This document shows positions 8,443 to 34,000 of a DNA stretch of 64,000 nucleotides, one piece after another. Origin of the DNA: Psammoneis japonica (lineage: Eukaryota); contig QPGO01000134.1 of the NCBI GenBank assembly GCA_008632985.1, forward strand, positions 124,001 through 188,000, given 5' to 3'. The first letter of the stretch is position 1. Every line of letters begins with the position of its first letter. Below the pieces are notes generated by a model that made no database searches, was not told where the DNA came from, and saw only the letters and a program-made list of their open reading frames with translations. A program made the translations under genes and the position numbers.

Positions 8443-8715
8443 TGTGGCGGCGCGGCCTTTGCCTTGGCCCCCCACGAAGAGACTGATTTAACAGCTCAAG
8501 TGCGACTAAGAACAAAGAATAAATCCTCCAAAAAACACTCCGTCAAAGATTCAAAATAACAAAGGAACAAAAGCAATCCTTCATCACAGCTTTTCTTCTC
8601 TCTTTGTCATCTTAGGTCATCCCGCACTCTGAGCCTGTCAGGGGCGGGCGGTGTGCGTGCAGGACAGCCAGACGGGCTTTGCTTAGCTGTGGGTCGGTGA
8701 ATGAAAGCGGGTGGC

Positions 8716-11700
8716 GGGCATCGACGAAAGCCCCCTACCGATGGAAGATGGACCAATCAGAACGCTTCATTCTAAGAATACACGTTGCAATACTTAGGGC
8801 TTTCTGAAAGAATACACATCATCATTACTTAACGATCAATGCAACACAGACACAGCCACCTCGGTTCATCCATCTCAGACGGATGCGCCACAGTCTGAGC
8901 ACTGGCGCTCTGACAAAGACACCACACACAAAATTCAAACTCCTCCCGTCTTTTTTCATCTCACTCATCATCAGCACCGACCTGTACAAGAGAGTTCTGA
9001 GAGAAGGAATTGCAGCAGAATGGAGAAGTGTTTCTCCCATAAGCTTCCCAGCACCATGGGTGTTCAGTCTCAGACTCGAAAGGCAGCCACGAAAAAAGCA
9101 AAGGAGAGCGAGCTTTTTCTGGAATCGCCAAGTTGTCGGGGAAAAACATGCCTCGGTTTACAACATCACCGGCGGCGGAGGCAGAATCACAAATTCTGAC
9201 TCTACCAAACAGTCACACTACTCAAGAAAAAGTTGTTGAGTGCAAAAGGTGCAAACAAGGGCCCTCCTGCAAAAAGGGTCATGACACGAGCTGCCCAAAA
9301 TCCATCTGCCATGGAAAGAATGTGAGTGCCGAGCGAAACGCGGCTATCCATCGCTTCATTGCTAGTAACGCAAGAAAGAACGCAAAAAAGCTACCAGGTT
9401 GTCAGGCCCCAACTAAGGAAGGTGTGGAGGCACTGCTCCACAATGGCACCAGGGCTTCAAAAAACAACAAGCCATCTGCAACGACCGTCTCGTCGCCGAC
9501 TGCTGCTGCCAACGCCACTGCCAACGCTACTGCTGCTACCATCAGCACCGTCACGTCGAACAGCATGGAGCATTCTGGCAACATTGTTGAAGAAGATCCT
9601 CTCTCTAGAGAGGTGCTCAAGAGAGAGATTCGGAAACGAATTGAAACATGTAAAAAAAAGAAGATTCCTTGTCCTGCACCCATTCAGGCTTTGATTTTGT
9701 ACCTTCTGGACTTGTGTCCATCTCGGTTTCATGCGGACTCGAATGAGATCATGGGCGGAGAGGTGAATGCCAAGAAACTAAATGGTGTCAGAAGAATTTT
9801 CCTTCCGGTGCCATGTCATTTACAGTGCCACGTGATGACACAACCAAAACTCCCGACAACCTCTACAGTGAGATTGAAGGCGTTACAATCCATTTGCTCC
9901 GCTGGGAATTGAACTTCATTGGCATGTTTTTGCCATGTGTCGATGGATGTGATGACGGCGAGATGACACATCAGCAGTTTGACATCAAGAAGGAGTGTTC
10001 ACCGACTCCAGTGTTGAAAGTTAGTGGCACCACTGATTGGACAAGCTCAATGCTCTACAAGTGCAACAAATGTGGCTGTGAATGCAAGGCGAACGATCCC
10101 AAGCTAATTAAGAAGCTGCCGAGGCCTCTACAAACAAGCTGTCCCATGGATCTACGACATGCAGCCGCGAATCTGTCTTTCACCTGTCGCTCGAAACGTC
10201 ACAACATGTGGACCATGCTGTGAAGAAGTGCAGCAATGGTGATGATGTGTCTGCTTTTCTTCATCAACAAAGAGGCGAGACTTTTGTTGATAAGAGGAGG
10301 GTTGCTGTTCTTTGTTAAAAGATGCTGGCGGAGGGAATGCGACGGGTTTGTCGGTGTTCAAGGATTGGGTCGGTCGCTGTGGACCCACTGGACAAAATGC
10401 AAGAGACATGTGTGATTTTGTCCGGCAATCAAACCTTGCCGAGACCGGAACAAGCGACAACATTCGGCACACGAGGGAAATGCAATCCGTTGGTTGTCGC
10501 ATCAGTGTTGCGTCCGACCACACTTTTGACCAAATGAAGAATTACAAAGACAACAACGGCAAGGGACTCTTCACCATGGCCACAGAGACTGGAGAGATTG
10601 GTGCAGCTGTGGCAGTGCCAACATTGGAAACAAAAGACTGTGCGCATGCAGCTGAACAGTTTGCGAGGCGTCCAAATGTCAAACCTCAAGTGCATTGCTC
10701 TGATGCTTGGCCCAACAAGGAAGAGTTTTGGAAGCAAATTTTTGGTCAGGACATTGCATGCAGGCTTGGTCTTTGGCACTGGACAAACCGCATCATTCGG
10801 ACTTTACGAGGCACTCACATTGATTGCTGTCGTGCGGTTCGTGATTTAAAGGATTGCGTCCGGCACAACGATGAATCCGACGAGGCAAAGGCAGTTGATG
10901 CTCTTGTCTTTGGGAAACTTGGCGGGAAGAAGAACACGACGGAAGAAATTGAGGAAATCAAGAACAGCAAGAAGTGGAGCAACTACAAGAAGTACATTCG
11001 AAGGTGGGCTTGCCCACTCGAAACACAGAACAAGCATCTGGAATCTTGGTTCGATCGGCATGAGTGCTCTGCATCTCCCAGCGCAGCAGAAGCTGGCGGA
11101 CGGTGTGACCCAGACTCTGGGAAGCCGCTTTTTACGGAAGATGCAAAGCCAGCGGTTGAAAACGCAAAATTGTCGGCTCGTGGACTCAATGAGCCGCTGC
11201 CACGTGAAGACTCACACAGAGTTGTCAAGCCTTCAAAATGGTCCAAGTGCAAGCTCGACACGTTTGTGACAACCACTGGCACGGAATCAAAGCTTGAAAA
11301 GTGTCACCATGTCGTCAAGCATTTTGGAAACACTGGTTCAAGATCCTCTCTGACAGATGCACTGTGCCTTGCAGGAACGTGTGAATGCAACATGTCAATG
11401 TGAGAGCGTGTCCGAACAGACGAACTGATGGCTGACGAGCGCGCCAAGATTCCGCACGCCTTTGAGGCGTTCCTGCTTTTCTCAACCACAGCAAGCTCGA
11501 CTGCATCAACAAGCTGGCAGAGAAAGCAGGAGCACCCCATCCTGTGCATGGGAATGTCGAAGAACTAAAAGAAGACAATGGTGAGCGGCATTTTTCAGCT
11601 TGCCCGGAGCAATTGGAACGCGTGAGAGAGCAGCTCGAAATGAGAAGTGCTGCAACCGGCGCAGCAGCAGCAGCATCCGGAAAAAAATCTGACAGATGCA

Positions 11701-12440
11701 TGTGCAACAAGTGTGGCACAAGAAACCCACATTCAACCCGTTCTAACCCAATGGCAAGTGTGGAGAATCCACACAAAAGAAAATCCATGTCTCAACAACC
11801 GCCGCCGTCTGAGGAGCCGCGCGCGAAAAAAGTGAAACCTTTGAATTTGCAAGAGGTCGTTCCACCAAGACAGCTGCCACCAGCGCCGATTGCACCATGC
11901 CCCGTTCCATGTTCTGTTCCATGTTGCACTCCGATTCAAGTTGATCCCTTTTGGAACAGTGTGCCAACAGTTTTGCCGCTGTTGCAGATGCCGCCGAATC
12001 TGCAGTCGGATCTGAACCAAAAATGCTGCTGTTGCCGAGCGAGGGAATTCCATCTTTCAAAAACAAACTTGTTGGGGGTGGCTGCTCGAGGAAGAGCACC
12101 ACACGATGAACAGTGTTCATCAAAGCAGTCTCTGAATGTAGATTCATTGCTTGCCTTTTGATTCTAGCCCATGGCTGCATCTCGAATTGGCGCCGAGACA
12201 GAAGATGGGAAATGGGGGGCGGTGGCGCCCAAATAAAATCAACCGTGGAAATTTTTTATGCGCGATGGGCTTGTGATCTGCATCTTCAACGCCACGAAAA
12301 TGCGACAACACAGTGCACCTTGCACTCACTTCCGCCATTGCTGCGTTCTTCTCCTCTCTTCCTTCCTTCTCTCTTGTTGTTGCAGCAGCAACGGGGTCGC
12401 TTCGCTCCCCCTCTCCCCCCCTCTTCTTCCGTCGGCACCC
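8716..12440 (+). mobile_element. DNA transposon copy 1 (DUF6729-associated, MULE/IS256-like DDE transposase), decayed
   Basis: About 3.73-kb unit repeated at 12451-16176. Imperfect terminal inverted repeats GGGCATCGACGAAAG ... CTTCCGTCGGCACCC. Contains a broken transposase. Confidence 0.8.
9020..12161 (+). pseudogene. Transposase pseudogene, copy 1 (about 1040 codons when repaired)
   Basis: Fragments 9133-9912, 9813-10223, 10312-11403 and 11544-12161. Motif order SDHTF..TETGEI..(Y)SD..RLGLWHWTNRI..GTESKLEK(Y)H. Frameshifts and a TGA at 11401 where copy 2 has CAA. Confidence 0.75.
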
Positions 12441-12450
12441 CCCCATTTTC

Positions 12451-15400
12451 GGGCATCGACGAAAGCCCCCTGCCGATGGAAGATTGGACCAATCAGAGCG
12501 CTTCATTCCAAGAATGCACGTTGCAATGCTCGGGGCTTTCTAAAAGAATGCACATCATCATCACTTGACGATCAATGCAACACAGACACAGCCACCTCGG
12601 TTCATCCATCTCAGACGGATGTGCCACAGTCTGAGCACTGGCACTCTGACAAAGACACCACACACAAAATTCAAACTCCTCCCGTCTTTTTTTCATCTCA
12701 CTCATCATCAGTGCCAACCTGCACAAGAGAGTTCTGAGAGAAGGAATTGCAGCAGAATGGAGAAGTGTTTCTCCCATGAGCTTCCCAGCACCATGGGTGT
12801 TCAGTCTCAGACTCGAAAGGCAGCCACGAAAAAAGCAAAGGAGCGAGCTTTTTCTGGAGTTGCTAAGTTGTCGGGGAAAAACACGCCTCGGTTTACAACA
12901 TCACCGGCGGCGGAGGCAGAATCGCAAATTCTGACTCTGCCAAACAGTCGTGCTACTCAAGAAAAGGTTGTTGAGTGCAAAAGGTGCAAACAAGGGCCCT
13001 CCTACAAAAAGGGTCATGACACGAGCTGCCCAAAATCCATCTGCTGTGGAAAGAATGTGAGCACCGAGCGAAACGCGGCTGTCCATCGCTTCATTGCTGG
13101 CAACGCAAGAAAGAACGCAAAAAAGCTGCCGGGTTGTCAGGCCCCAACTGAGGAAGGCATGGAGGCACTGTTCTGCAATGGCACCAGGGCTTCAAAAAAC
13201 AACAAGCCATCTGCAACGACCGTCTCGTCGCCGACTGCCACTGCCAACGCCACTGCCAACGCTGCTGCTGCTGCCATCAGCACCATCACGTCGAATGGCA
13301 TGGAGCATTCTGGCAACATTGTTGAAGAAGATCCTCTCTCAGAGAGGTGCTCAAGAGAGAGATTCGGAAACGAATTGAAACATGTAAAAAAAAGAAGATT
13401 CCTTGTCCTGCACCCATTCAGGCTTTGATTTTGTGCCTTCTGGACTTGTGTCCATCTCGGTTTCATGCGGACTCAAATGAGATCATGGGCGGAGAGGTGG
13501 GTGCCAAGAAACTTAAATGGCATCAGAAGAATTTTCCTTCCGGCACCATGTCATTTACAGTGCCACGTGATGACACAACCAAAACTCCCGACAACCTCTA
13601 CAGCGAGATTGAAGGCGTTACAATCCATTTGCTCCGCTGGGAATTGAACTTCATTGGCACATTTTTGCCATGTGTCGATGGATGTGATGACGGCGAGATG
13701 ATGCATCAGCAGTTTGACATCAAGAAGGAGCATTCGCCGACTCCAGCATTGAAAGTTAGTGGCACTGCTGATTGGACAAGCTCAATGCTCTACAAGTGCA
13801 ACAAATGTGGCTGCAAATGCAAGGCGAACGATCCCAAGCTAATTAAGAAGCTGCCGAGGCCTCCACAAACAAGCCATCCCGTGGATCTACGATGTGCAGC
13901 CGCGAATCCGTCTTTTCACCTGTCGCTCGAAACGTCACGACATGTGGACCATGCCATGAAGAAGTGCAGCAATGGTGATGACATGTCTGCTTTTCTTCAT
14001 CAACAAAGAGGCGAGACTTTTGTTGATAAAGAGGAAAATTACCATTCTTTGTTAAAAGATGCTGGCGGAGGGAATGCGACGGGTTTGTCGGTGTTCGAGG
14101 ATTGGGTCGGTCGCCATGGACCCACTGGACAAAATGTGAGAGATGTGTGTGATTTTGTCGGCAATCAAACCTTGCCGAGACCGGAATGAGCGACAACATT
14201 CGGCACACGAGGGAAATGCAATCCGTTGGTTGTCGCATCAGTGTTGCGTCCGACCACACTTTTGACCAATCAAAGAATTGCAAAGACAACAACGGCAAGG
14301 GACTCTTCACCATGGCCACAGAGACTGGAGAGATTGGCACAGCTGCAGCAGTGCCAACATTGGAAACAAAAGACCATGCGCGTGCAGCTGAACAGTTTGC
14401 GAGGCGTCCAAATGTCAAACCTCAAGTGCATTGCTCTGATGCTTGGCCTGACAAGGAAGAGTTTTGGAAGCAAATTTTTGGTCAGGACATTGCATGCAGG
14501 CTTGGTCTTTGGCACTGGACAAACCGCATCATTCGGACTTTACGAGGCACTCACATTGATTGCCATCGTGCGGTTTGTGATTTAAAGGATTGCGTCCGGT
14601 GCAACGATGAATCCGACGAGGCGAAGGTAGTTGATGCTCTCATCTTTGGGAAACTTGGCGGGAAGAAGAACACGATGGAAGAAATTGAGGAAATCAAGAA
14701 CAGCAAGAAGTGGAACAACTGCAAGAAGTGCATTCGAAGGTGGACTTACCCACTCGAAACACAGAACAAGCATCTGGAATCTTGGTTCGATCGGCACAAG
14801 TGCTCTGCATCTCCCGGCGCGGCAGAAGCTGGCGGACGGTGTGACCCAGACTCTGGGAAGCCGCTTTTTACGGAAGATACAAAGCCAGCGGTTGAAAACG
14901 CAAAATTGTCGGCTCGTGGACTCAATGAGCCGCTGCCACGTGAAGACTTGTGCAGAGTTGTCAAGCCTTCAAAATGGTCCAAGTGCAAGCTCGACACGTT
15001 TGTAACAACCACTGGCACGGAATCAAAGCTTGAAAAGTGTCACCACATCGTCAAGCATTTTGGAAACACTGGTTCAAGATCCTCTCTGACAGATGCACTG
15101 TGCCTTGCAGGAATGTGTGAACACAACATGTCAATGCAAGAGCGTGTCCGAATGGACGAACTGACGGCTGACGAGCGCGCCAAGATTCCGCACGCCTTTC
15201 GAGGCATTCCCACTTTTCTCAACCACAGCAAGCTCGACTGCATCAACAAGCTGGCAGAGAAAGCAGGAGTGCCCCATCCTGTGCACAGGAATGTCGAAGA
15301 ACTAAAAGAAGACAATGGTGAGCGGCATTTTTCAGCTTGCCCGGAGCAATTAGAGCGCGTGAGAGAGCAGCTCGAAATGAGAAGTGCTGCAACCGGCGCA

Positions 15401-16176
15401 GCAGCAGCAGCATCCGGAAAAAAATCTGACAGATGCATGTGCAACAAGTGTGGCACAAGAAACCCATGTTCAACCCGTTCTAACCCAACAGCAAGTGTGG
15501 AGAATCCACACAAAAGAAAATCCAAGTCTCAACAACCGCAGCCGTCTGAGGAGCCGCGCGTGAAAAAAGTGAAACCTTGAATTTGCAAGAGGTCGTTCCA
15601 CCAAGACAGCTGCCACCAGTGCCGATTGCACCACACCCCGTTCCATGTTCTGTTCCATGTTGTACTCCGATTCAAGTCAATCCCTTTTGGAACAGTGTGC
15701 CAACAGTTTTGCCACTGTTGCAGATGCCGCCGAATCTGCAGTCGGATCTGAACCAAAAATGCTGCTGTTGCCGAGCGAGGGAATTCCATCTTTCAAAAAC
15801 AAACTTGTTGGGGGTGGCTGCTCGAGGAAGAGCACCACACGATGAACAGTGTTCATCAAAGCAGTCTCTAAATGTAGATTCATTGCTCACCTTTTGATTC
15901 TAGCCCATGGTTGCATCTCGAATTGGCGCCGAGACGGAAGATGGGAAATGGGGGGCGGTGGCGCCTAAATAAAATCAACCGTGGAAATTTTTTATGCGCG
16001 ACAGGCTTGTGATCTGCATCTTCAACGCCACAAAAATGCGACAACACAACGCACCTTGCACTCACTTCCGCCATTGCTGCGTTCTTCTCCTCTCTTCCTT
16101 CCTTCTCTCTTGTTGTTACAGCAGCAACGGGGTCGCTTCGCTCCCCCTCTCCCCCCCTCTTCTTCCGTCGGCACCC
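12451..16176 (+). mobile_element. DNA transposon copy 2, decayed; flanked on both sides by CCCCATTTTC
   Basis: Collinear with 8716-12440 over its full length, with the same terminal inverted repeats. CCCCATTTTC lies at 12441-12450 and about 16178-16187. Confidence 0.8.
12757..15897 (+). pseudogene. Transposase pseudogene, copy 2
   Basis: Fragments 12565-13428, 13347-14189, 14186-15580 and 15577-15897. Frameshifts fall at different positions from copy 1. Confidence 0.75.
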
Positions 16177-16289
16177 CCCCCATTTTCGGCGGGGGGGGTC
16201 ACGAGGGCACAGGACAGTTGTCCAGCTGGGGCTTTGATTGCAAAACTGATGCTTTGCAGGCCAAATTGAGAAAGTGTGGTGGTGGCAGG

Positions 16290-16451
16290 TGCAGTGTCTC
16301 GCACCCCATTTTTCTGACACACAGTGTCAATGAATCCATTAGACACAACGGAAGCCGTTGCAACGGGCTTCGCTGAAAGCGACCCTTGTTGCCTCGGTCT
16401 TTTGCTCACAATTTTGTTGTCACTAAAGTCTTTATCTCGTTAGACCTTGCA
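16290..16451 (+). repeat. 5' LTR
   Basis: TGCAGTGTCTCGCACCCC...GTTAGACCTTGCA. By my alignment it has 12 substitutions and no indels versus the 3' LTR. Confidence 0.95.
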
Positions 16452-16480
16452 CTGTAATTACAGTCGATTCAAAGAACTGG

Positions 16481-16696
16481 ATGGAGACTGGGAACAACAC
16501 AAACAAATTGACTGAACGTGAGAAAAGAGAACTACGCGCAAGAGCAGCAGTTTGGGCCATTGAGCACCAGAAACAAGTGCAACAGCGTAAACGACACGAG
16601 CAGAATTTGGCGAGCCGAGTGCATCATTTGGAGTCAAAGGTGGAGTCCCTGGAAAGGACCATTGAACAATTGCATTCCCTTTTTCATGATGAGTGA
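16481..16696 (+). CDS. Small coiled-coil ORF upstream of gag
   Basis: ATG-initiated 71 aa with a heptad pattern (LASRVHHLESKVESLERTIEQLHSL); overlaps the gag start. Confidence 0.45.
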   Translation: METGNNTNKLTEREKRELRARAAVWAIEHQKQVQQRKRHEQNLASRVHHLESKVESLERTIEQLHSLFHDE

Positions 16697-17906
16697 ATCG
16701 TTGAAGGAGCCTTGCACCAGCTGTGAAGCCAAATTTGAGCATTCTGACTTGGAGGACGTGAAATTGACCCAATCGCATGATGACGGCAGCACTCGTACAA
16801 AAAAGTGTCCGCGTTTTGATGGCACTCATGGCATTGAAGCATTGTCATTCGTTGAGGATCGTTTTTGTAAAATTGCTGTGAAACTGGAGCACACTGCTGG
16901 CGAGGAGTTGTTCGAAAATTTCGAGGAAGTGCTCGCGGATGCGGCAGAGGACAAATGGGCGAATTTGACCAACGCAATTGACGATGCCGACAAAACTGTC
17001 GAGCGTTTTGATCAGGAAATCAATCGTTTTTACTTGTCTCATTGTGACAATGAAGCGCGCGATGCGATGATTGAACATTTGCCAACTTTGAAAAAACCAC
17101 TCAAATCTGAAGTGCAGGCGCACGCGGATTGCATGGAAACCTTGATTCGGCACTCCAACAAACTTCCGGGAAATGCTCCTCAAGTCAACGAAGCTCAGAA
17201 GAAAAAGATGACATTCGACAGCTTCCCTCGTCCGTGGCGTGAGATGTGTGCTCGAGCAGGACGAGCGACAGCGAACGATGCTCTCGCTGAGATCATCAGT
17301 CACATGAACAACGAGAAATCTTTTGCTGACAAGAGTGGCAACAAGAAGCAGGACAAGAAGAGGAAAGGCAACAGTGCTTCGTCTCAAGCTTCAAGATGCT
17401 CTCGTGGCAACAGCGGTGGAACGGATCCAGAATTTAGATGCCCGGTGCACACGAATCACAACCACAAGTGGAAGGATTGCATTTTGAATCCAGAAAGCCA
17501 AAACTGTCGGCCGAGGTCCGACCGTGGCGGTCGTGGCGGAGGCCGTGGTGGAGGCCGAGGAAACTGCCAAGGCAGAGGACCCCAAGGTCGAGGCGGTCGT
17601 GGCAACTTCCAAGGTCGAGGCCGTGGCAATTGTGGCAATCAAGGAGGACATGGAGGCCGAGGTTGCGGCAATTGTGACAACTCCCAGAATTCTCAAGGGA
17701 ATGGATCCCATTGTCAAAATCAAAACGGCACCCAAGTCAACGGTGATGCCCAAGGCTGTGGAAATCCGGCTGGAGCAGCTCCTCCTGGTGGCTGGCAAAT
17801 GGAGTCGCACCATTTTGATCAAGGAGGGCCTCGTGAGATGCGAGGTGGAAATGGATGCGATCAGAACGGTCGCACCCATCAAGGCCAACGAAGTTGGCGT
17901 AATTGA
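16686..17906 (+). pseudogene. Gag-like ORF of the Gypsy element
   Basis: Long ORF with a CPVH-x4-H-x4-C zinc knuckle and an RGG-rich tail, lying between the 5' LTR and pol. Confidence 0.8.
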
Positions 17907-20900
17907 CAAGGGACGGAAGCACCTGAGTCAGAGCGTGTCGCTCAATCTTTTTGTGTTTCGTGCGATTGTGAAGAAAATGTGTGTTTTAATGTTGATGACA
18001 ATGTGGGAGACCTGATGGAATCTCATGCTGTGAATGAAGAAAAATTGGGCGGCGTTTTGGAGTGCGCTGTGCCAACCCCTAAAACTGCGACTCCTGAACC
18101 ATTGAATGTGGTGCCAACGACGTTGATGGCGGCGCGCACCATTCAAAATCAAGAGAGCAAGCGAGTGTTGCGCGTGTTGTTGGATTCAGGAGGTGCTGAC
18201 ACTCTTGTTCATTCTTGAGTTTTGCCGAAGGGAGCGAATCCGACCATGAACGATGAAGGACGGTTGAGTTTTCAGACGGCAGCCGGACGACATGAATCCT
18301 CCCGATGCGTTGTCATGAAGGACTTGACATTGCCAGAATTTGACAAGTCAAAACAAGTCGATGGCATTGCGGCTCAAGTTTTTGATGCCCCATGCAAGTG
18401 TGACACAATTTTGGGACAAGACTTTTTGTTGAAGGCTGGAATCGTGCTTGATTTTCGATTTGGAACAACAAAGTGGTTGGGAACGTCGATCCCAATGAAG
18501 CAATCCAATCATTGGAACTCAGTTCAGAATTGGTTGGACACACTGGAAGACGACGGAGAGGACGAAGACGATGAGGAAGCCTTCGGACAATCTTTTATGA
18601 TGGACGCCAAATGCGAGAAAGTGTCATCTGTGAAAGTGGCGCAAGCTCAAACTCACTTGACTCAAGAACAACGTGATGAACTGCAGGCAGTGCTTGAAAA
18701 GCATGAAACCCTCTTTGATGGAATGCTTGGCAAACACCCGCATGAGACTGTTCACTTGGAAGTTGATCCCAACGCTGTCCCCTTCCATTCTAAGGCTTGC
18801 GAAGTGTCCAAGAGGGATGAAGCCGTTTTTAAGAAAGAATTGCAGCATTTGTGTGATGTTGGCGTGCTGGAACCAGTGGGACCAACTGAATGGGCAGCCG
18901 GAACTTTTGTGACTCCCAAAAAGGATGGACGAGTTCGACGGGCATCCGATTTTCGAGAGTTGAACAAAGTGCTCAAGCGAAAGGTCCATCCTCTGCCGAT
19001 CATTCAAGACGTTATTCACCGACGCTCGGGATGCAAGCATTTGACCAAATTGGACCTCACTGTGTTTTATTGTCATGTCGAACTTGACGAAGAATCCAAG
19101 GATTTGTGTGCCATCGTCACTCCGTTTGGAAAATTTCGATGCTGTCGATTGGCCATGGGTTTGAAACCCTCTCCCGACATTGCTCAAGCCATCATTGAAA
19201 AAGTGGCAAACGGAGTCGATGTTGAAACTTACATCGATGACATTGCTCAATTTGATGATTCGTTTGATGCTCACATGCATCGACTTGATGAGCTGTCATC
19301 CAGACTAGAAGAGAACAACTTGAAAATTAACCCACTCAAGTGCGAATGGTGTGTCCGAGACGGATTTTTTAGGCCATTGGCTCACGCCTGCAGGAGTCCA
19401 ACCATGGAAGAAGAAAGTGGAAGCGGTGCTACGAATGCAACCACCTAAAACTGTGACGCAACTACGATCGTTTGTCGGTGCGGTGACTTGTTGTCGCAAC
19501 ATGTGGCCTCGTCGCTCACACGTGCTCGCTCCACTCACGAAGTTAACAGGCAAGAGCAAGTTGGAATGGACCCCTGAATGTCAACGAGCCTTTGAAGACA
19601 TGAAAACCTTGATGCTGGACGACACCCTTTGGGTCTACCCGGATCATGACAAGCCATTCCACATTTGTGCTGACTCTTCGGACTGTCAGATGGGAGCCGC
19701 AATTGTGCAAGACGGGAAACCAGTGGCTTGCTGGTCCCGAAAACTCAGCGCAGCACAACAGAACTGCTCTGCGATTGAAAAGGAATTGTTGGCGGTGGCA
19801 ATGTGTTTCAAAGAATTTCGGAGCATGTTGTTTGGAGCTGACTGCACTGTTTTTACGGACCACAAAAATCTCACCTTTCATGCGCTCAATTCTCAACGAG
19901 TTCTTAGGTGGCGACTCTTCTTGGAAGATTTTGCCCCAACTTTCGAGTGCGTTGATGGCAAAGACAACCTCTTGGCGGATTGTTTTTCAAGATTGCCGCG
20001 TGTGGACCCTCCTGTGGAAGGGAAGTGTGCTCCTGACAAGGGCAAACTGATTGATTTTAAGGCGATCGACCCTGCCATGCTGCCGCATGAAGAAGAACTG
20101 GATGACCAAAACCGTGTGTCTCATTTTTCCTGTCGTCGTGAAGAACCATCTCCATTTTACTCTTCTGTCGTGGACGACCCCGAATTGTGTGAATCATTTT
20201 TGAACTGTCCTTCTCTCGAGGAAATGCAAAACCCCACAACTGTGCAACGAATTCAAGAACACCAATTCGTCGACGTGGAGCTGAACAATGTGCGACAACA
20301 ATGTCCAGAACGCTTCGTGGTGAAATGTGTGAATCAGCGTCCTGCAATTTGTTGTCGTGCTCGACCGAATGATCTTCCAACTGCGTGGAAAATTTGTGTT
20401 CCAACGGTGTTGCTGCATGACATCATACGATGGCATCACAGGATTTTGGGACATGCAGGAGTGCACCGAATGCATTCCACTGTTGGCGCACATTTCTGTC
20501 ATCCTGCCCTTCGTCAATCCTGTGAAGGATTTCATTGTGCTGATTGTCAATGTTTGAAAACTTCAGGCCCTGGATGTGGGGACCTGCCTGAACGAGAAGC
20601 GCCTTTGTCACCATGGACGGAAGTTGCGGTTGATCTCATCGGTCCCTGGAAGATTGAAATTCAAAACCATGAAATCGAGTTCAACGCTTTGACTTGTGTT
20701 GACACTGTTTCGAATGTGACTGAACTCATTCGCATCGAAAACAAAACCTCGTCTCACATTGCCCAACAATTTGAAAATTGTTGGTTGTCTCGTTGTCCTT
20801 GTCCCAACCGTTGCATCCATGACAATGGTGGAGAATTCGTTGGAGAGGACTTCCAATTGCTGTTGCAACAAGCGGGAGTGGAAGACACTCCGACTGCGTC

Positions 20901-21400
20901 ACGAAATCCACAAGCCAATGTGGCATGCGAGCGCATGCATCAAACTGTTGGAAATGTCTTGCGCACTTTGCTTCATGTTTGTCCTCCACAGAATGTTGAG
21001 CAGGCCAATCAACTGGCGAACAATGCATTGGCAACCGCCATGCATGCAATGCGATGTGCGGTTTCTCGTGCTCTCAAGATTTCACCCGGTGCCATGGTTT
21101 TTCAACGTGACATGATTCTTGACTTGCCGGTCCTAGCCGATCTTGCTGCCATTCAAGAACACCGACAAGCAATTGTTGATGCGAATCTCCATCGAGCCAA
21201 CGCTAAACGCCGATCCTGCGATTTTCAAGTTGGTGGACACGTTCTACTCAAGTCTGTCGATCCCACCAAGCTCAAAACCACGAGCTCACAGTCCATGTCC
21301 CATCATTCAAGTGCACGCTAACGGCACGATTACGGTCCAACGTGCACCTCATGTGACAGAACGATTGAATGTTCGTCGCGTCGCACCGCATCGTACCTGA
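17907..21400 (+). pseudogene. Pol (protease, RT, RNase H, integrase), disrupted
   Basis: LLDSG protease, DFRELNK and YIDD (RT), ADSSD..EKELLA..TDHKNL (RNase H), H..LGHAG and VDLIGP..HDNGGEF..NPQAN..ERMH (integrase). TGA at 18216; frameshifts near 19350 and 21280. Confidence 0.92.
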
Positions 21401-21501
21401 GGTTGAGGGTTTTCTCCCCAACATTTGGGTTTCCCTTCTATCCTCATCCATTGGAATTTGAAAATTTTTGAGTCCCGCATGATTCTCGACACTCGAATCA
21501 T

Positions 21502-21513
21502 GGAAGGGAAGAG
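21502..21513 (+). other. Polypurine tract
   Basis: GGAAGGGAAGAG immediately 5' of the 3' LTR. Confidence 0.85.
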
Positions 21514-21675
21514 TGCAGTGTCTCGCACCCCATTTTTCTGACACACAGTGTCAATGAATCTATTGGATGTAACGGAAGCCGTTGCAACGGGCTTCGCTGA
21601 AAGCGACCCTCGTCACCTCGGTCTTTCGCTCACAATTTTGTTGTCGCCAAAGTCTTTATCTTGTTAGACCTTGCA
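21514..21675 (+). repeat. 3' LTR
   Basis: Direct repeat of 16290-16451, followed by the TSD GCAGG. Confidence 0.95.
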
Positions 21676-21680
21676 GCAGG

Positions 21681-23700
21681 CAGTGCCACACTGGGAGGAG
21701 CAGGCTGATTTCCCCATGCCACAGAGGTGGAAAAAATTGAGCAGCCAGGGGGCGCTTGTCAGGGCGAGTGAGAAAGGCATGTGAGTGGAAGCAAATGTTG
21801 AGGAGAAAGACGTTCTGGAAGACCCAGTTGTCCAAGGGAGCTCAGAGGGCAATGACAGGACAGCTCCATTGGAAGTGCCAAGCAAAAATTGATGGGCAAA
21901 CCAACCAAGGGCAAAATGAGGCAGGTGATCAGCACGGGGGGTGTGAGAATCAGCAGGGTGCACACCTTCTGGCATGATGGCTGGGGTGGTCGGCAAGAAT
22001 GACAGAGCCAAATTGTGTGTCACAATTCCTGCACAACATTCTCTTGGCCTTCTTGTGGTGTGCCTCAGCAAGTGGGTTGGCAGAAGGGGCAGGCAAGCCA
22101 GGAGAGCAGGAAATGGATGGGGCCACCAGGGGGGTTGGCGGCTGGCAACATGTCGAGACAGCAAGAAGTGTGTGTGTGTGAGGTGCTGGGGGGGCTCCTG
22201 CAGAGGCAGCTGGAGTGAGCTGTGCACCAACACCAGCAGGGTGTGCTTGTGGGACAATGAGGGAGCAGGCTGGAGAGCTTTTTGTGGTGCGCAGGCTGTG
22301 GTGCACACCCAGCAAAGGAGTTGCTGCAGCAAATGCCAGAGAGATGGGCAACAGCAGTCTGTCAAAGGTTGGTGAAAAAGAGGCTGTCTTAGATGTCATT
22401 TTGAAAGCACAGACTTGTGTCTGATGGAGCAGCAGCAAAAAGAATGTTCCCCATGTTGGTTGGCTTGTCCCATGCAGAAGCACACTGCACCGATGTTGGC
22501 CAAGGGGGTCTTGGGTGGGAAGGCCCAGCTTGCACCACAACACGGAGCAAAAATGGGTCAGAGATTGGCTGTTGTCACTCAACAGAGCAAGCCAGAGAAT
22601 GAAGCAGATGGCTTGCAAGTGTGGCAACAGCAGAGGCTGCATCAGGGCTTCTTGAGCAATGTGCTGGGAGTGGTGAGAGTGCACCCTTTGCCAGAGTGTG
22701 CATGGGGGGGCAGGACAAAGGCAACAAGGAGCTGCCAACTCTGCCATGTGGCAGAACCTGCTGGACATTTTGGAGGTTTTTTGACATTTTCCTTTGCCGC
22801 ACACAGCACTCAAATGACATGAATGGAGCTGGCATGGCACAAAATGCATCTGACACTTGGCTCCTTTTAGATGACACCACAGGACACATTTCAGAACAAC
22901 AGTGGTGGCCAGGATGAGGAGGTTCAATGCCATCTTTTCTTTGGGCAGGGAGTTTTTGGGCAAATGAGCTGGCACCACACCCAGCACCTTGCAGTTTGAC
23001 AAGAAGTTGCTGTTGGTTGCTGGTTTCTCTGCACACACATTGGGGGCAATGAGACTGTGCCATCACATGCACAAAATGAAGCAATGAAGAACAGCAGGCA
23101 GCACCAGCAGCCAAGCTTTGCTTTGCTGGTGGCAGCTCTGACAAAAACTCCAAATCTTTTTCTCACCTCCTTTTGGATGCATTTGTTTTGCCTTCACCTC
23201 TTGAAGGGCAGCACAGAATGAGGCACGACTCTGCATGTGCAGTGAACTGGAGAAAGTGGCACCACAAGACAAGTGTTTGGGGGTGGGATCTGCCTGCTGG
23301 TTTTGTCAGCTCAGCAGACATGCTGCAAAAAGGTGACTTGTTCATGTCGTCTGCCGCAAAGTGGTGTGGATCTCCTGTCTCCTGCACGAAAACAGTGGCA
23401 CCCATGGCAGTTTTCTGGGTTGGTTGGGGTGTGACCACTGTTCCAAGCTTCTAGAATGTCTGACAGTTTTGCCCCCCTGAGGATGATTGGGTCTGGTAAA
23501 AAAGAGAAGATCATCATCCAACTTGCGCTACAATGATGCGCAATTCTTGAAACAACACGTGTGTGGCAGAAAGAGTGCTGCGCCAGGTGATGGAAACCAA
23601 TGACTTGCAAGCTTCTTGTCCAGAGCACCACCGGTGCAACAGCAACCTGTTGAGCTCCGGCGGCCAAAACACTGATAGTGCATCGACTTATTTTATCAAT
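21681..23700. other. Heavily decayed relic sequence (TpA- and CpG-depleted); probably continues at 16188-16289 on the other side of the Gypsy insertion
   Basis: Only two TA dinucleotides found by eye in 21681-23450, few CG, and Tyr-free spurious ORFs on both strands. No recognisable protein family. Confidence 0.6.
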
Positions 23701-23772
23701 CAATAATTTCATGGTTGTGTCCATGTCCGATTATGAATCTCTACGGAAAACTACATTGGAACTTCGAACTCG

Positions 23773-24828
23773 TCACCGCGATGTCGCATCCCGCTCACTT
23801 TTTTTTTCTGACTGAGGGTGTTGCCGTCCGCCTCCATGCTGAGCACGCTTCTCTCTCTGTAGTAAAAAGTCTGGAGGACAAGGAGCTCCTCCTCCCTCCT
23901 CGTTGGGTTCCCGTCGTTTTCGATTCCAACCGCCAACAGAGTCGGGCGAAATGATCGCCATGAGGGCTCGAGGAGGATTTTGTGATATGTGTTGGGCCAT
24001 GACTCGAGCGGCCTCTTGCTCGACTCGATGCAGCTCGGACTGAACAACCAGCGCATCGCTTTCACGGTGGAGTCTTTTCTTTTGCGAAACAACAAACTGA
24101 GACAAAATGAAAGATGAACATTGTCATGGTGAGGCTTCAAGCTATTGTGTTGTCTTGCGTACGACTATCTTGCACAGCAAACACCTTACCTTTCCAATTT
24201 CGTTCAAATCATGATTTGATATATGCTGTTTACTAGTCACACATACTTCTCCCCCCAGTTGCCGCGATAACCGACACGAACCCTCATCATTTGATTCTAG
24301 GCAAACAAATAAAAAGTGAGAAGCATTGCATAAGTTGGGCATACGAGCTACTTCAAAGGATATATTTGCTTACGCACCCATTATATGTAAACATGGCCAG
24401 CCGCTTATCAGTTCCTCGTCATCTTCTAATATTGCGCTGCCTCGTATAAAAATTCCAAACTTGAGACCCTGAACTCCAATCAACGGGAGAAGCGATGCAA
24501 TGGCAGCGCCTCGCCCAACTCCCAGTATTCCCGCAAATGGCATCGACTTCCACGTCTGTTGAAGATGTAATAATGATGCATCCAGACCGGTATATTGTTT
24601 CTCATTTTGTTCCCACCAAATTCGACGTGGCGGTCCGTTGTCGTCGTCTTGTTGTGGATGCTCCTCCTGTCGAATCAGGGGACTGTTGATGTATACCAAT
24701 TCCACGCCGTGTTTGTCATACAGTCGTTCATCGAGGACCTTGATTGACTGATGGAGCTCCAATGCGTTTGACTCCGAATCATGTAAACACAGGATGCGTA
24801 GCAATACATTGCCATTGACAGTCGCCAT
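23773..24828 (-). CDS. FSH1/OVCA2-like serine hydrolase family protein (three exons)
   Basis: LRILCLH, PFAGILGVGRGAAIA, LKFGIFIRG and PCLHIMG. Predicted splicing through a short exon near 24190-24298 to the 23773-24105 frame. The usual GFSQG serine is replaced (GVGRG). Confidence 0.65.
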
Positions 24829-31039: not shown

Positions 31040-34000
31040 GGGCTCCTGAGGTCCCAGCCTGGACGAGGAGGATGCAGCATTTTCCTCTCTGTCTAGTCTA
31101 GTGTGATCCAGCTTTTGATTCCAAATTGCTTGACACAATGCCCACCATTGGCCTGCTTTTGGGCCAATGCAGCTCCCTTCACTGTGAAATTAAAAAAAAC
31201 CCTGCGAAGGGTGGAACATGACAATCAGCACAGCCAACTGGGAGAAAATTGAAATTTGGTGGAGCAGAAGAACGAGTGACAAAGACTGGCAAACTGTGAC
31301 ACGGCATGCCATGCTCACCCAGTGACAGTCAATGACGACCCTGCCCTCCCTGTCAGCAATGTGCGGTGGGTGCACGCCCAACCACCATCCAAACGAGTGA
31401 GTTGAGAAATTTGGTGGCACAAAGGAAAGACTGGGTGTTCTTGACAAGGCAAGCCATCTTGTCCAGTGGAGAAATTGTTGACGGTGCCTGTCCCTGCATC
31501 AAAACCTGTCTGTTGGAGGCCATCAAGTCTCCTGTAGAAACTTGACACTGGGTGGAGCTTTCATGCTCAAGCATTTGCGCAACTTTGCACCACTTTCTCC
31601 AAACCGTGCGCCTCTGACCGCATTGTGCACTGCAGCACTGCACCAAAGCTGGATTGAAATGATGCGCTGCAGGGCCAAATTGAAACTGAACACAGGCAGC
31701 AAATTTGTTGCCCAAGCTGGGAAGGGGGGGCAGGGAGGGGACACTCAATGGTTCCTGTGCATCAAGGCAAAAGCACATGAGACACACTGGTTCAAGGTGT
31801 TGGGGGCAATGTCTCTGCCAGTGAGTCACACAGGAGTGAGCACATTGCAAGTCACACAAATGGCTTCCACTCATGGGGTGGCATGCTGCACCCACCTGAT
31901 GATGCTTTGGGGGGGACAAAGTGCCCCCACCTTTTTGCACATGCCACCATGGTCGAAAACACAACAGAGAGAAGCAGGAGGTTCTGTCCTTTCATTCACT
32001 GTGGGTTGCTGGTTTTTAGGATTTGCAGCAGGTGCCCCTGTTCATTCAACAGGAGCACTGTGTTGAATTTGATGAAAAACAAAAATCAGATTCTTTGCCC
32101 AAATGACAAAAGGAGCACCGCTGTGGGGACAAACAACTCGCCCCAGCTCCAAAGGCACAACCTCACACTGCTGAGCTGGCTGCAGCAATGTTGATGCTCT
32201 TTTGTCAAGCACTGTGGTGTCTTGCACACATGCATTTTTGCATGACTTTGGTGGAATTTTGTGTCATTTTGCAGCACAATTGTTGGGAGATCCACTCAAC
32301 AACTTGTGACTTTTTTGTGCAAAGAAGTTCTTTGATGTTCCAAGGGTGGCCACCAGTCACCACTTTTTTGGCTTGAATTTGGCCAAATGGTGGCTCATGT
32401 TTTGCAGATTTTTCTGCACTTTACAGAGCTTGTCTGCCATGGGACTTGCATCAAAATTGTGTGCTCCCCCTTGCATGCCAAGTGATCAACATGAGATGTG
32501 ATTGTCCCATGGCAGAAGGCTGCATTTTTGAGAAACATCATGATTGCTGTCATTGTCATTCCTTGGCTGCGGTGACGGATGTTCTTGTTTTCATGCATGG
32601 TCAGGTGCAAATGTTGACAATTTCAATCTTGCCCTCTTTGTCAGTGGTGAGCAGTGCACATGAGTTGAGAAATGGTGTGATGGCTGCTCAGAAGAAAAAC
32701 TGGACATCTTTGACAAGCCAAGCCATCTTCTCCAGCAGAGAGACATTGTTGTTGGTGTTCCTGCCACCCCTGTGTCAAAACCTGTTCATCAAAGGCAGTT
32801 GCTCAATCTGCCAGAAAAGCCAAATGTTGGAAAACCAACACTGGAGCACTGAAGCTAAAACATTTGAGCTGTTTTCTCCATGCTGAAAAACATGCAACAC
32901 CCAGGCAAGCCAAGATGATTGTGGCACACATGGTGTGACAGCAGCCAAAGGGGGCTTTTGTCATGAGTGAGAGAGTGTGCGTGCATGTCTGACATCTGCA
33001 ACCCCCCTTGGGCACAACCCATGTTGGGATTTGCACCACAACTGCAGCTGAGAAGGTGCAATGTGATCCAATGTGTGGGGCACTGGAGACATTGGCTGCA
33101 CATGGCGCATGTGGCATTTCCCAAAAGTGCTGTGGCTGACCACCAGCCATGCCCAAAGCAATGGCTGCAATGCAAAGGGCCGTCAAGTGACCACACACCT
33201 CTGTGTGGCAGAGTGTTGCAAGAGACCTTCTGTGGCAACTGTCCCAAAGGCAGCTTTTGACAGACTTGATGCCACGGTTTGCATGTGCAACACATCAAAT
33301 TCATCACATGCCCTGCTCCCCAGATCTGTGACAAAGACATTTGCTTTGTGCTCAAAACCATGTTAAGAGTGCCCTGGGAAAGGCATCAGGTGCTCTGCTT
33401 TGAACCATGCTTCTCCCAAATGTTGTGAATGCATGACAGCTTTTGTCAAGAGGACATGGCAGGTGCATGGCTCACTTTCTTTGTTTCCCTTGTGCTTGCA
33501 AGTTGACATGGCCATCCCACCATCTCTGTGACTGCCCCCTTTGTGGTGCAAAAGGCCGTCCTGCCATCTCTGTGACTGCCCCCCATTGTGGTGCGAAAGG
33601 CTGCCTCTTGCAAAGTCAAAGGTCCTGACACCTGTCCGGGGATCAAGCCATGCAAAGGTGGCAAAAATTGCTGTGGGCACCAGCAAAAGTGGGAGTTGCT
33701 GCCCTTGTTTGTCAAGGTGCATGGGCTGAAGTTTCTGGGGCTGGATGCATCATGAGGCACAACACGCTGCCAACACATGATGTTGTGGCTCTCTTCCTCC
33801 TTTGTGAGATCGGGGTGGAAGGCATTGAGACTCGAAATGTGCCTCAGTGCATTGAGTTGGGCCACAAGCTTGTCCCAAAAACTCTTTGCACTTTCCTTGT
33901 CAGTCATGTGGATGTGAATCTTGTCATTGAGAGAACAGCAGATGAAAAACCATCATTTTTCAGGGCACAGTTCTTGCCCCTCAATCAGAAAAAGTGACGT

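Follow-up and report, generated by a model that had tools for sequence, protein, structure and literature searches.

Evidence for a post-insertion chromosomal process that erodes TpA steps in a diatom Ty3/gypsy retrotransposon

Introduction

Within a 64,000-nucleotide stretch of the Psammoneis japonica genome (assembly GCA_008632985.1, contig QPGO01000134.1, positions 124,001 to 188,000 of the forward strand; the window hereafter), a Ty3/gypsy retrotransposon occupies positions 16290–21675. Its two long terminal repeats (LTRs), which are identical at the time of insertion, now differ by 12 substitutions, all of them transitions in pyrimidine-purine (YpR) steps. The locus raises the question of which process made these changes, when it acted, and what directs it to its target. 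The answer held here with high confidence is that the element is a young diatom Ty3/gypsy copy, altered after insertion by a process that acts on the chromosome and turns TpA into TpG or CpA (A:T>G:C, on either strand) at about 290 times the background, independently in each copy and domain by domain. The complete statement, in which the chemistry is adenine deamination of TpA in silent chromatin, is put forward with moderate confidence.

Differences Between the Two LTRs

Alignment of the 162-bp pair gives the 12 substitutions listed in the original prediction, with no indels and no transversions, every one in a TA, CA, TG, or CG step. The proposed classes also recur: four sites of TA type, four of CG type, and two double sites at which CA stands opposite TG. 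YpR steps cover 49.4% of the LTR positions; for 12 of 12 to fall there, P is 2.1e-4 when all are taken as transitions and 6.5e-7 when the probability is instead the share of YpR transitions in host-gene duplicates (119 of 390 differences).

A search of the genome with the LTR returned 41 matches and 16 two-LTR elements, this one included. One pair (L040) was dropped from the counts since an N gap cuts its 3′ LTR, its 29 “transversions” being an alignment artefact, which leaves 15 usable pairs; its LTR loci (L018 and L055), both spared, were retained in the flank test on 41 LTRs described below. The pattern extends to the family, where YpR transitions account for 147 of the 162 substitutions in the 15 pairs, at 97 TA-type sites, 20 CG-type, 14 CA-versus-TG, and one TA-versus-CG. 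The 13-mer proposed as the unmutated sequence has an exact match in 21 of the 41 LTR loci.

Polarization with 31 LTRs resolves the 12 differences into eight TpA>CpA/TpG changes (LTR positions 48, 52, 55/56 twice, 57, 101/102 twice, and 135), three CpG decays (positions 98, 114, and 149), and one CpA>CpG gain (position 133). The label of YpR transitions is correct for all 12 but does not describe a single process: a fast conversion of TpA is mixed with ordinary CpG decay, the latter at about 14 times the background. The count of CG-type sites likewise stands, but the site at 16421–16422/21645–21646 is the CpA>CpG gain in the 3′ LTR (CA in 30 of 31 LTRs) and not a CpG loss. Eight further TA sites have been converted with an identical outcome in both LTRs and are unseen by a pairwise count.

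Support from reads is incomplete. In contigs of a public DNA run (X1, available as contigs only), which may be the source of the assembly itself and is thus no independent test, neither LTR has an alternative letter, and four of the 12 differing positions (21627, 21646, 21648, and 21662) are individually covered, by a contig of single-copy depth anchored in unique flank. At window position 22293, a single-copy-depth contig of this run has G where the window has A (CpA context), through a strain difference, a new mutation, or an assembly error.

Direction of Change and Independence of the Copies

In the alignment of 16 copies, TA, CA, and TG occur together without CG at 197 sites and all four states at seven, and an invariant CA or TG is found at 592 sites vs. 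an invariant TA at 10. One copy (L039) has 255 TA steps, compared with 42–102 in the others; where it has TA, the remaining 15 copies read TA 1017, CA 1241, TG 1472, and CG 8 times. Reversals from CA or TG are scarce, with 15 to TA and 41 to CG per 9630 site-copies. In 11 protein columns that hold Tyr in at least 60% of 120 outside homologues, the copy in the window has Cys in nine, His in one, and Tyr in one, and other conserved columns are intact (Trp 8/8, Phe 13/13, His 10/10). Compared with the TA-rich copy, 40 of 46 Tyr codons read Cys or His in the window copy, the counts being 15 of 17 in the gag-position frame (16512–17906) and 10 of 12 in the reverse transcriptase frame (18219–19448). 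Because of the site-state counts, the rare back-changes, and the Tyr of the outside homologues, the direction of change is from TA to TG or CA.

Interiors are erased in 14 of 15 copies, with 500 of 2461 interior TA sites kept. The choice between CA and TG agrees between copies at 0.654, against 0.632 expected from site bias, with a maximum of 0.78 among 105 pairs; agreement within the subfamily of the window copy (0.64–0.72) is no higher than elsewhere. The copies do not inherit one another's changes, and each has been converted independently.

Both strands are affected. The 1074 TG and 887 CA outcomes at interior TA sites include a TG share of 0.548 vs. 0.527 expected by context, and 14 of 15 copies are without runs. 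Conversion per strand is strongest in TAC and TAT (0.9–2.2) and lower in TAA and TAG (0.1–1.1), with TTAA and CTAG the best survivors. The hazard at TA is 0.8 per base, whereas A>G changes after A, C, and G amount to 3.7, 6.8, and 2.7 per 1000. Transversions number 9/7335 at TA vs. 40/70965 elsewhere. Relative to background, the cumulative hazard is about 290-fold at TA and about 14-fold at CpG, with a CpG loss of 5–10% per copy. In the family alignment, an excess of the A>G changes outside TA (72 of 156) lies before T; private non-YpR changes comprise 101 transitions vs. nine transversions, the TA-rich copy included; both features are probably a bias of reverse transcription.

Anatomy and Setting of the Element

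The element is a Ty3/gypsy retrotransposon because its domains follow the order reverse transcriptase-RNase H-integrase, and it has in addition LTRs, a 5-bp target duplication, and a polypurine tract. Its features and those of the surrounding domain are as follows, in window positions.

16285–16289, + strand: 5′ target-site duplication, GCAGG
16290–16451, + strand: 5′ LTR, 162 bp, TG...CA (locus L001); 12 of 15 family TA sites converted, two CpG decays
16512–17906, + strand: gag-position open frame, 464 amino acids from stop to stop, without a Pfam match
18219–19448, + strand: reverse transcriptase frame (RVT_1, E = 2.8e-18)
19324–21321, + strand: RNase H-integrase frame (RT_RNaseH, Integrase_H2C2, rve), which holds the 11 Tyr columns of the outside homologues, 10 of them now Cys or His
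21502–21513, + strand: polypurine tract adjoining the 3′ LTR, read directly in the sequence
21514–21675, + strand: 3′ LTR, 162 bp (locus L002); 11 of 15 family TA sites and one subfamily TA site converted, besides one CpG decay and one CpA>CpG gain
21676–21680, + strand: 3′ target-site duplication, GCAGG
8715–16189, no strand assigned: tandem pair of units of a 3.74-kb dispersed repeat, forming the left part of the TpA-erased domain
21681–23500, no strand assigned: right part of the TpA-erased domain, an older relic with TpA and CpG both almost gone, essentially single-copy today

The copy sits within a TpA-erased domain of 15 kb: the observed/expected ratio (o/e) of TA is 0.04–0.27 within 9001–24000 vs. 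0.35–0.76 in the gene-rich parts of the window. Both of its LTRs are converted because it lies inside this domain. In the stretches 21681–23500 and about 31250–34000, TpA and CpG are nearly absent and CA/TG reach an o/e of up to 1.9; these stretches are likely the end state of old elements. No empty allele of the insertion site was found: the copies of the 3.74-kb repeat on two other contigs, a tandem on C225 and a single unit on C61, have other flanks, and the right flank matches other places only weakly and over short lengths. A perfect 12-bp palindrome at 16452–16463 directly follows the 5′ LTR, at the place expected for a primer-binding site.

In the host genome, the silicon transporter family has 24 matches and light-harvesting proteins have 82, which, together with the named homologues of the element in Nitzschia and Cyclotella, marks the genome as that of a diatom. 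One open frame of 1511 amino acids (G000:C38:226311-230342) comprises three silicon transporter units.

Dependence on the Chromosomal Flank

The state of an LTR follows that of its host flank. TA o/e in the adjoining 500 bp of host DNA is below 0.3 for 16 of 19 converted LTRs vs. two of 22 spared LTRs (Fisher P = 1.2e-6, 41 LTRs), and conversion correlates with TA o/e in the 1.5-kb flank (rho −0.71). The erased flanks are mostly other retroelements, with reverse transcriptase or integrase matches in three of the five converted-LTR flanks in which open frames were scanned. Where an LTR is spared, the spared zone outruns its 162 bp and reaches 224–787 bp inward from 5′ ends and 270–349 bp from 3′ ends. 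In a sister copy (L032), the two target duplications differ by TA vs. CA.

The same spectrum is seen in the 3.74-kb repeat, whose tandem units in the window (8715–16189) differ at 183 positions, with 166 YpR transitions, 14 other transitions, and three transversions; no reverse transcriptase or LTR match was found in this repeat. It occurs also as the tandem on C225 and the single copy on C61; its sister copies contain a long frame of 1100–1200 amino acids that is DUF6729-like with weaker Mutator-like matches, and the repeat is possibly an unclassified DNA transposon. Host-gene duplicates at 96–97% identity, including one pair 1.1 kb apart, have ordinary spectra with many transversions.

Because LTR state follows the host flank, the process acts on chromosomal state and not on sequence likeness, and because near-identical host duplicates keep ordinary spectra, homology alone is not the trigger. 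Editing of RNA or cDNA is excluded because it cannot depend on the insertion site. On the 15 LTR pairs and 41 LTRs, all three claims of the original prediction stood: that the changes came after integration, that they speak against editing, and that age is overestimated. The differences between the LTRs are, however, insufficient by themselves to dismiss editing; it is the flank dependence, the strand symmetry, and the mutated target duplication that exclude editing of cDNA.

Two arrangements of copies may be noted here. L034 and L035 (G000:C42:61974-72750) are arranged tail to tail with 5 bp between them, and the target sequence is identical on all three sides; of the inner LTRs, one is converted at 13 of 15 sites and the other, mostly spared, at three of 15, those three being nearest the junction. 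Two elements on different contigs (L040/L055 and L032/L011) have a common start of the 3′ flank; given the N gap in the 3′ LTR of L040, a scaffolding join or a segmental duplication is possible.

Proposed Mechanism and Alternatives

After insertion, the chromosomal DNA around an element is mutated from TpA to TpG or CpA, with TAC and TAT favoured and TTAA and CTAG spared, and a slower decay of CpG to TpG or CpA proceeds alongside, leaving CA and TG as a stable sink. The process acts on stretches of chromosome, such that an LTR adjoining TpA-erased DNA is converted and one adjoining ordinary DNA is usually spared, with a margin of about 225–350 bp. An enzyme recruited to silent, transposon-marked chromatin may deaminate the adenine of TpA in DNA to hypoxanthine, which would be read as G at replication. 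The CpG decay would stem from deamination of 5-methylcytosine deposited by DNMT5-type enzymes, and the process may constitute a genome defence that wrecks Tyr codons.

Candidate deaminases in the genome comprise TadA/ADAT-like genes and two A_deamin loci, none of them tied to the process. Cytosine methylase domains are present. A search of the genome for an alkyladenine glycosylase gave no match, the control search being positive in four of 14 genomes. In one open frame (L121:313-1785, − strand), a predicted candidate, a TadA/AID-like deaminase domain is followed up by a 2OG-Fe(II) dioxygenase (DIOX_N, 2OG-FeII_Oxy) in a putative fusion. An atlas search with this frame returned dioxygenase matches only, at 0.78, and the fusion is not mentioned in the available part of a review of deaminases.

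Several observations weigh against this reading or its chemistry. L052 is converted despite a normal flank, L021 retains 12 of 15 TA sites though it abuts another copy, and the 500-bp flank of L014 is low in TA. The TA-rich copy L039, nested within another gypsy frame on contig C196, has lost 11 of 204 TA sites, with 11 private background changes and a CpG loss of 16/298, like other copies. The 139-kb contig itself, dense in nested gypsy and copia elements, mostly keeps its TA (o/e mostly 0.4–1.0). Neither the nature of a transposon nor CpG decay is sufficient for TA erasure. Young duplicates on C196 still differ most often at TA sites, and the process there is weak rather than absent. In the window copy, eight of the 10 doubly converted LTR sites agree in outcome (about 5.5 expected), six of them consecutive at LTR positions 18–39; these hidden concordant changes may reflect short conversion or inheritance from a pre-mutated donor. 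Agreement in the two other doubly converted copies is 7/13 and 3/10, and chance is adequate to explain concordant double changes. As to the chemistry, TA is self-complementary, so that a lesion on A and a lesion on the T of the opposite strand are indistinguishable by sequence; deaminases of the ADAT type occur universally as tRNA enzymes; and the genome has an endonuclease V.

The same timing and targeting could accompany another chemistry, in which TpA carries a modified base, either an altered thymine or N6-methyladenine (with its decay), whose mispairing gives T>C or A>G. Since TA reads alike on both strands, A>G cannot be told from T>C and the sequence data fit equally; the strict dinucleotide and domain limits also suit an epigenetic mark on silent DNA. 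However, the known eukaryotic context of N6-methyladenine is ApT. No Tet/JBP match was found in the genome, but the control search was also blank. This chemistry is considered unlikely.

Error-prone repair synthesis by a polymerase eta-like enzyme (WA>WG), set off by the repair of deaminated 5-methylcytosine in methylated transposons, would explain why CpG decay and TA loss co-occur. CpG loss is 0.088–0.105 in the most TA-depleted copies vs. 0.05–0.09, and a weak correlation links LTR differences to CpG loss (rho 0.52, P = 0.049). The signature of such polymerases is WA, and the adenine rates observed outside TA are unlike it: AA>AG (3.7 per 1000) is not above CA>CG (6.8) or GA>GG (2.7). Moreover, TA changes exceed CpG decays about tenfold, L039 shows CpG decay without TA loss, and transversions at TA are few (9/7335 vs. 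40/70965 elsewhere). Repair synthesis is improbable as the source of the TA changes.

A process like repeat-induced point mutation (RIP), set off by pairing of homologous repeats and with its chemistry reversed, would account for repeats being the targets and for the effect on the tandem 3.74-kb duplication. Diatoms are recorded as encoding a RID-related DNMT4 (PMC9998398, available part), and a RIP-mutated fungal element with spared, identical LTRs is described in the accessible text of PMC4522978. The LTRs, however, form the most repeated part of the family, present in 41 copies and as direct repeats separated by 5.2 kb, and 22 of the 41 have been spared, according to flank. The 96–97% host-gene duplicates, among them the pair 1.1 kb apart, are unaffected, the nested repeats on C196 largely escape, and the target of a comparable process in the alga Bigelowiella natans is single-copy, as far as the available part of its description goes. 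A trigger by pairing is quite improbable on this evidence.

Editing before integration, by ADAR-type enzymes on RNA or by deamination of single-stranded cDNA with the ends spared by the order of reverse transcription, has in its favour that gradients of cDNA editing affect the interior and spare the ends, resembling the pattern here, and that A>G is in slight excess on the sense strand (1074 vs. 887). Known cDNA editing, however, favours one strand more than 10-fold and does not occur in DNA transposons (PMC4866542, in the part available), whereas the strand share here is that expected from context. Some sites were converted on one strand in one LTR and on the other strand in its partner, whether an LTR is converted depends on the host DNA beside it, the target duplications of L032 include a mutation, and a repeat without a reverse transcriptase match shows the same spectrum, which leaves this explanation hardly credible. 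That the pattern stems from an ordinary spectrum of mutation, from selection against TA, from conversion between copies, or from errors of assembly is as improbable. TA is indeed scarce in all window DNA (o/e 0.35–0.76 outside the domains), and only 4/12 differences are individually seen in read-derived contigs. Against this, YpR transitions make up 119/390 of the differences between host duplicates, where transversions are numerous; codons for conserved Tyr residues have been ruined; each copy has an outcome pattern of its own; and no indel separates the pair.

Consequences for LTR Dating

Beyond the inflation of age claimed in the original prediction, which is borne out, the number of LTR differences is no clock at all. 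It ranges from 0 to 22 over copies of similar background age (dispersion P = 1.4e-8) and is unrelated to private background changes (rho 0.02). It depends on how many LTRs are converted: 0–7 differences with none, 10–19 with one, and 12–22 with both. Two copies have identical LTRs though they have lost more than 70% of variable TA sites. For the window copy, background clocks, which are rough because private changes include reverse-transcription errors, predict 1.45 differences (own non-YpR changes), 0.88 (family mean), or 0.13–0.43 (transversions only) vs. the 12 observed. The LTR age of this copy is overestimated 8 to about 90 times.

Ages of diatom LTR elements have been calculated from LTR identity and a constant Phaeodactylum rate (10.1101/2025.10.24.684338, available part). 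Where the process acts, constant-rate ages would be 8- to 90-fold too old for converted copies and blind for spared ones. Inflation of LTR ages by hypermutation is known for RIP (PMC4522978, in the text available).

Outside Homologues and Wider Meaning

Three of the 120 outside gypsy homologues have Cys or His at Tyr columns (P0073 at 9/10, P0117 at 5/11, and P0003 at 3/10), with a Tyr content of 0.3–1.5%. The best match of P0073 in this genome is 51–56% identical, and P0073 is probably from another organism. The three proteins suggest, at the level of protein sequence only, that the same process occurs in other organisms. When metagenome contigs were scanned with P0073, five loci with ordinary TA o/e (0.59–0.80) came up, its own contig not among them.

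A general protist genome defence may tentatively be envisaged, although this is rather doubtful: a chromatin-guided DNA adenine mutator (a “reverse RIP” without need of homology), common to rhizarians, diatoms, and others with gypsy proteins eroded from Tyr to Cys or His. It would act in bursts in silent domains and stop about two nucleosomes short of active DNA, leaving refuge clusters where transposons survive, and would invalidate dating both by LTRs and by distance from a consensus. A natural enzyme acting on the adenine of double-stranded DNA at TpA would also be of interest in itself.

Comparison with Known Systems

Compared with diatom Ty3/gypsy elements (Metaviridae), the architecture is ordinary, and named homologues come from Nitzschia inconspicua and Cyclotella; the Tyr content differs, at 0.3% vs. 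a homologue median of 3.6%.

RIP of ascomycetes resembles the process described here in being post-integrational, in affecting both strands, and in ruining transposons by dinucleotide-specific transitions. It converts C:G to T:A, mostly at CpA, and creates TpA (PMC2621366, available part). In contrast, TpA is destroyed here and CA/TG form the sink, and near-identical host duplicates and many LTRs are spared. Fungal RIP was rejected both on direction (CA/TG>TA in 15/9630 site-copies, TpA being lost) and on the duplication trigger (22/41 LTRs spared by position, 96–97% host duplicates spared).

APOBEC enzymes likewise cause deamination-type hypermutation of LTR elements as a host defence, but according to the accessible part of PMC4866542 they produce G>A, on the sense strand only and before integration, whereas the changes here are A:T>G:C, on both strands, post-integrational, and flank-dependent. 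APOBEC or ADAR editing of retroelement intermediates was rejected by the target duplication, the flank, the strand share, and the repeat without a reverse transcriptase match. CpG decay of DNMT5-methylated diatom transposons, as far as given in the available text of PMC9998398, accounts for the three CpG>TpG/CpA differences and for the 5–10% CpG loss per copy; it cannot yield TA>TG/CA, the bulk of the signal here.

The closest known case, to judge from the part of the preprint available, is the rhizarian B. natans, in which integrated DNA from NCLDV (the nucleocytoplasmic large DNA viruses) as well as from virophages undergoes TpA-restricted A:T>G:C hypermutation, measured de novo (Mettrop et al., bioRxiv 10.64898/2026.01.13.699255). 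The de novo rate is about 1000-fold above background, in some lines only; the authors propose adenine deamination, with an ADAT2-like deaminase as a hypothesis (10.64898/2026.01.13.699255, same part). Both processes convert TpA to TpG or CpA on both strands, regionally, in foreign DNA that is silent or, here, presumably so, hundreds-fold above background, and independently of copy number; in P. japonica, too, the A:T>G:C change is restricted to TpA and regionally confined, with host genes spared. Both are patchy, the one limited to some lines, the other with one escaping copy and contig. They differ in host and target, viral insertions in a rhizarian with TA largely left (rho 0.45) vs. diatom retrotransposons near saturation (o/e 0.13), and in that the former was measured de novo and the latter is inferred from copies. 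In the available preprint text, the words “diatom” and “LTR” are absent, and spared element ends, flank dependence, the wider context, and the effect on dating are not described. No description of TpA hypermutation in diatoms was found in the literature searched, including the available parts of 10.64898/2026.07.24.739820 and PMC9099904, most subscription papers lying outside the search.

New in the present analysis are the flank test, the largely escaping retrotransposon-rich contig, and the Tyr>Cys/His signature in 3/120 outside homologues. The family provides an internal before-and-after record of a mutation process described to date in a single preprint on one distant alga; with it, ordinary transposons join viral insertions as targets, and a second supergroup lineage is added. 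By the flank test, the target is chromosomal state and not sequence likeness, which separates the process from RIP and makes its targeting testable.

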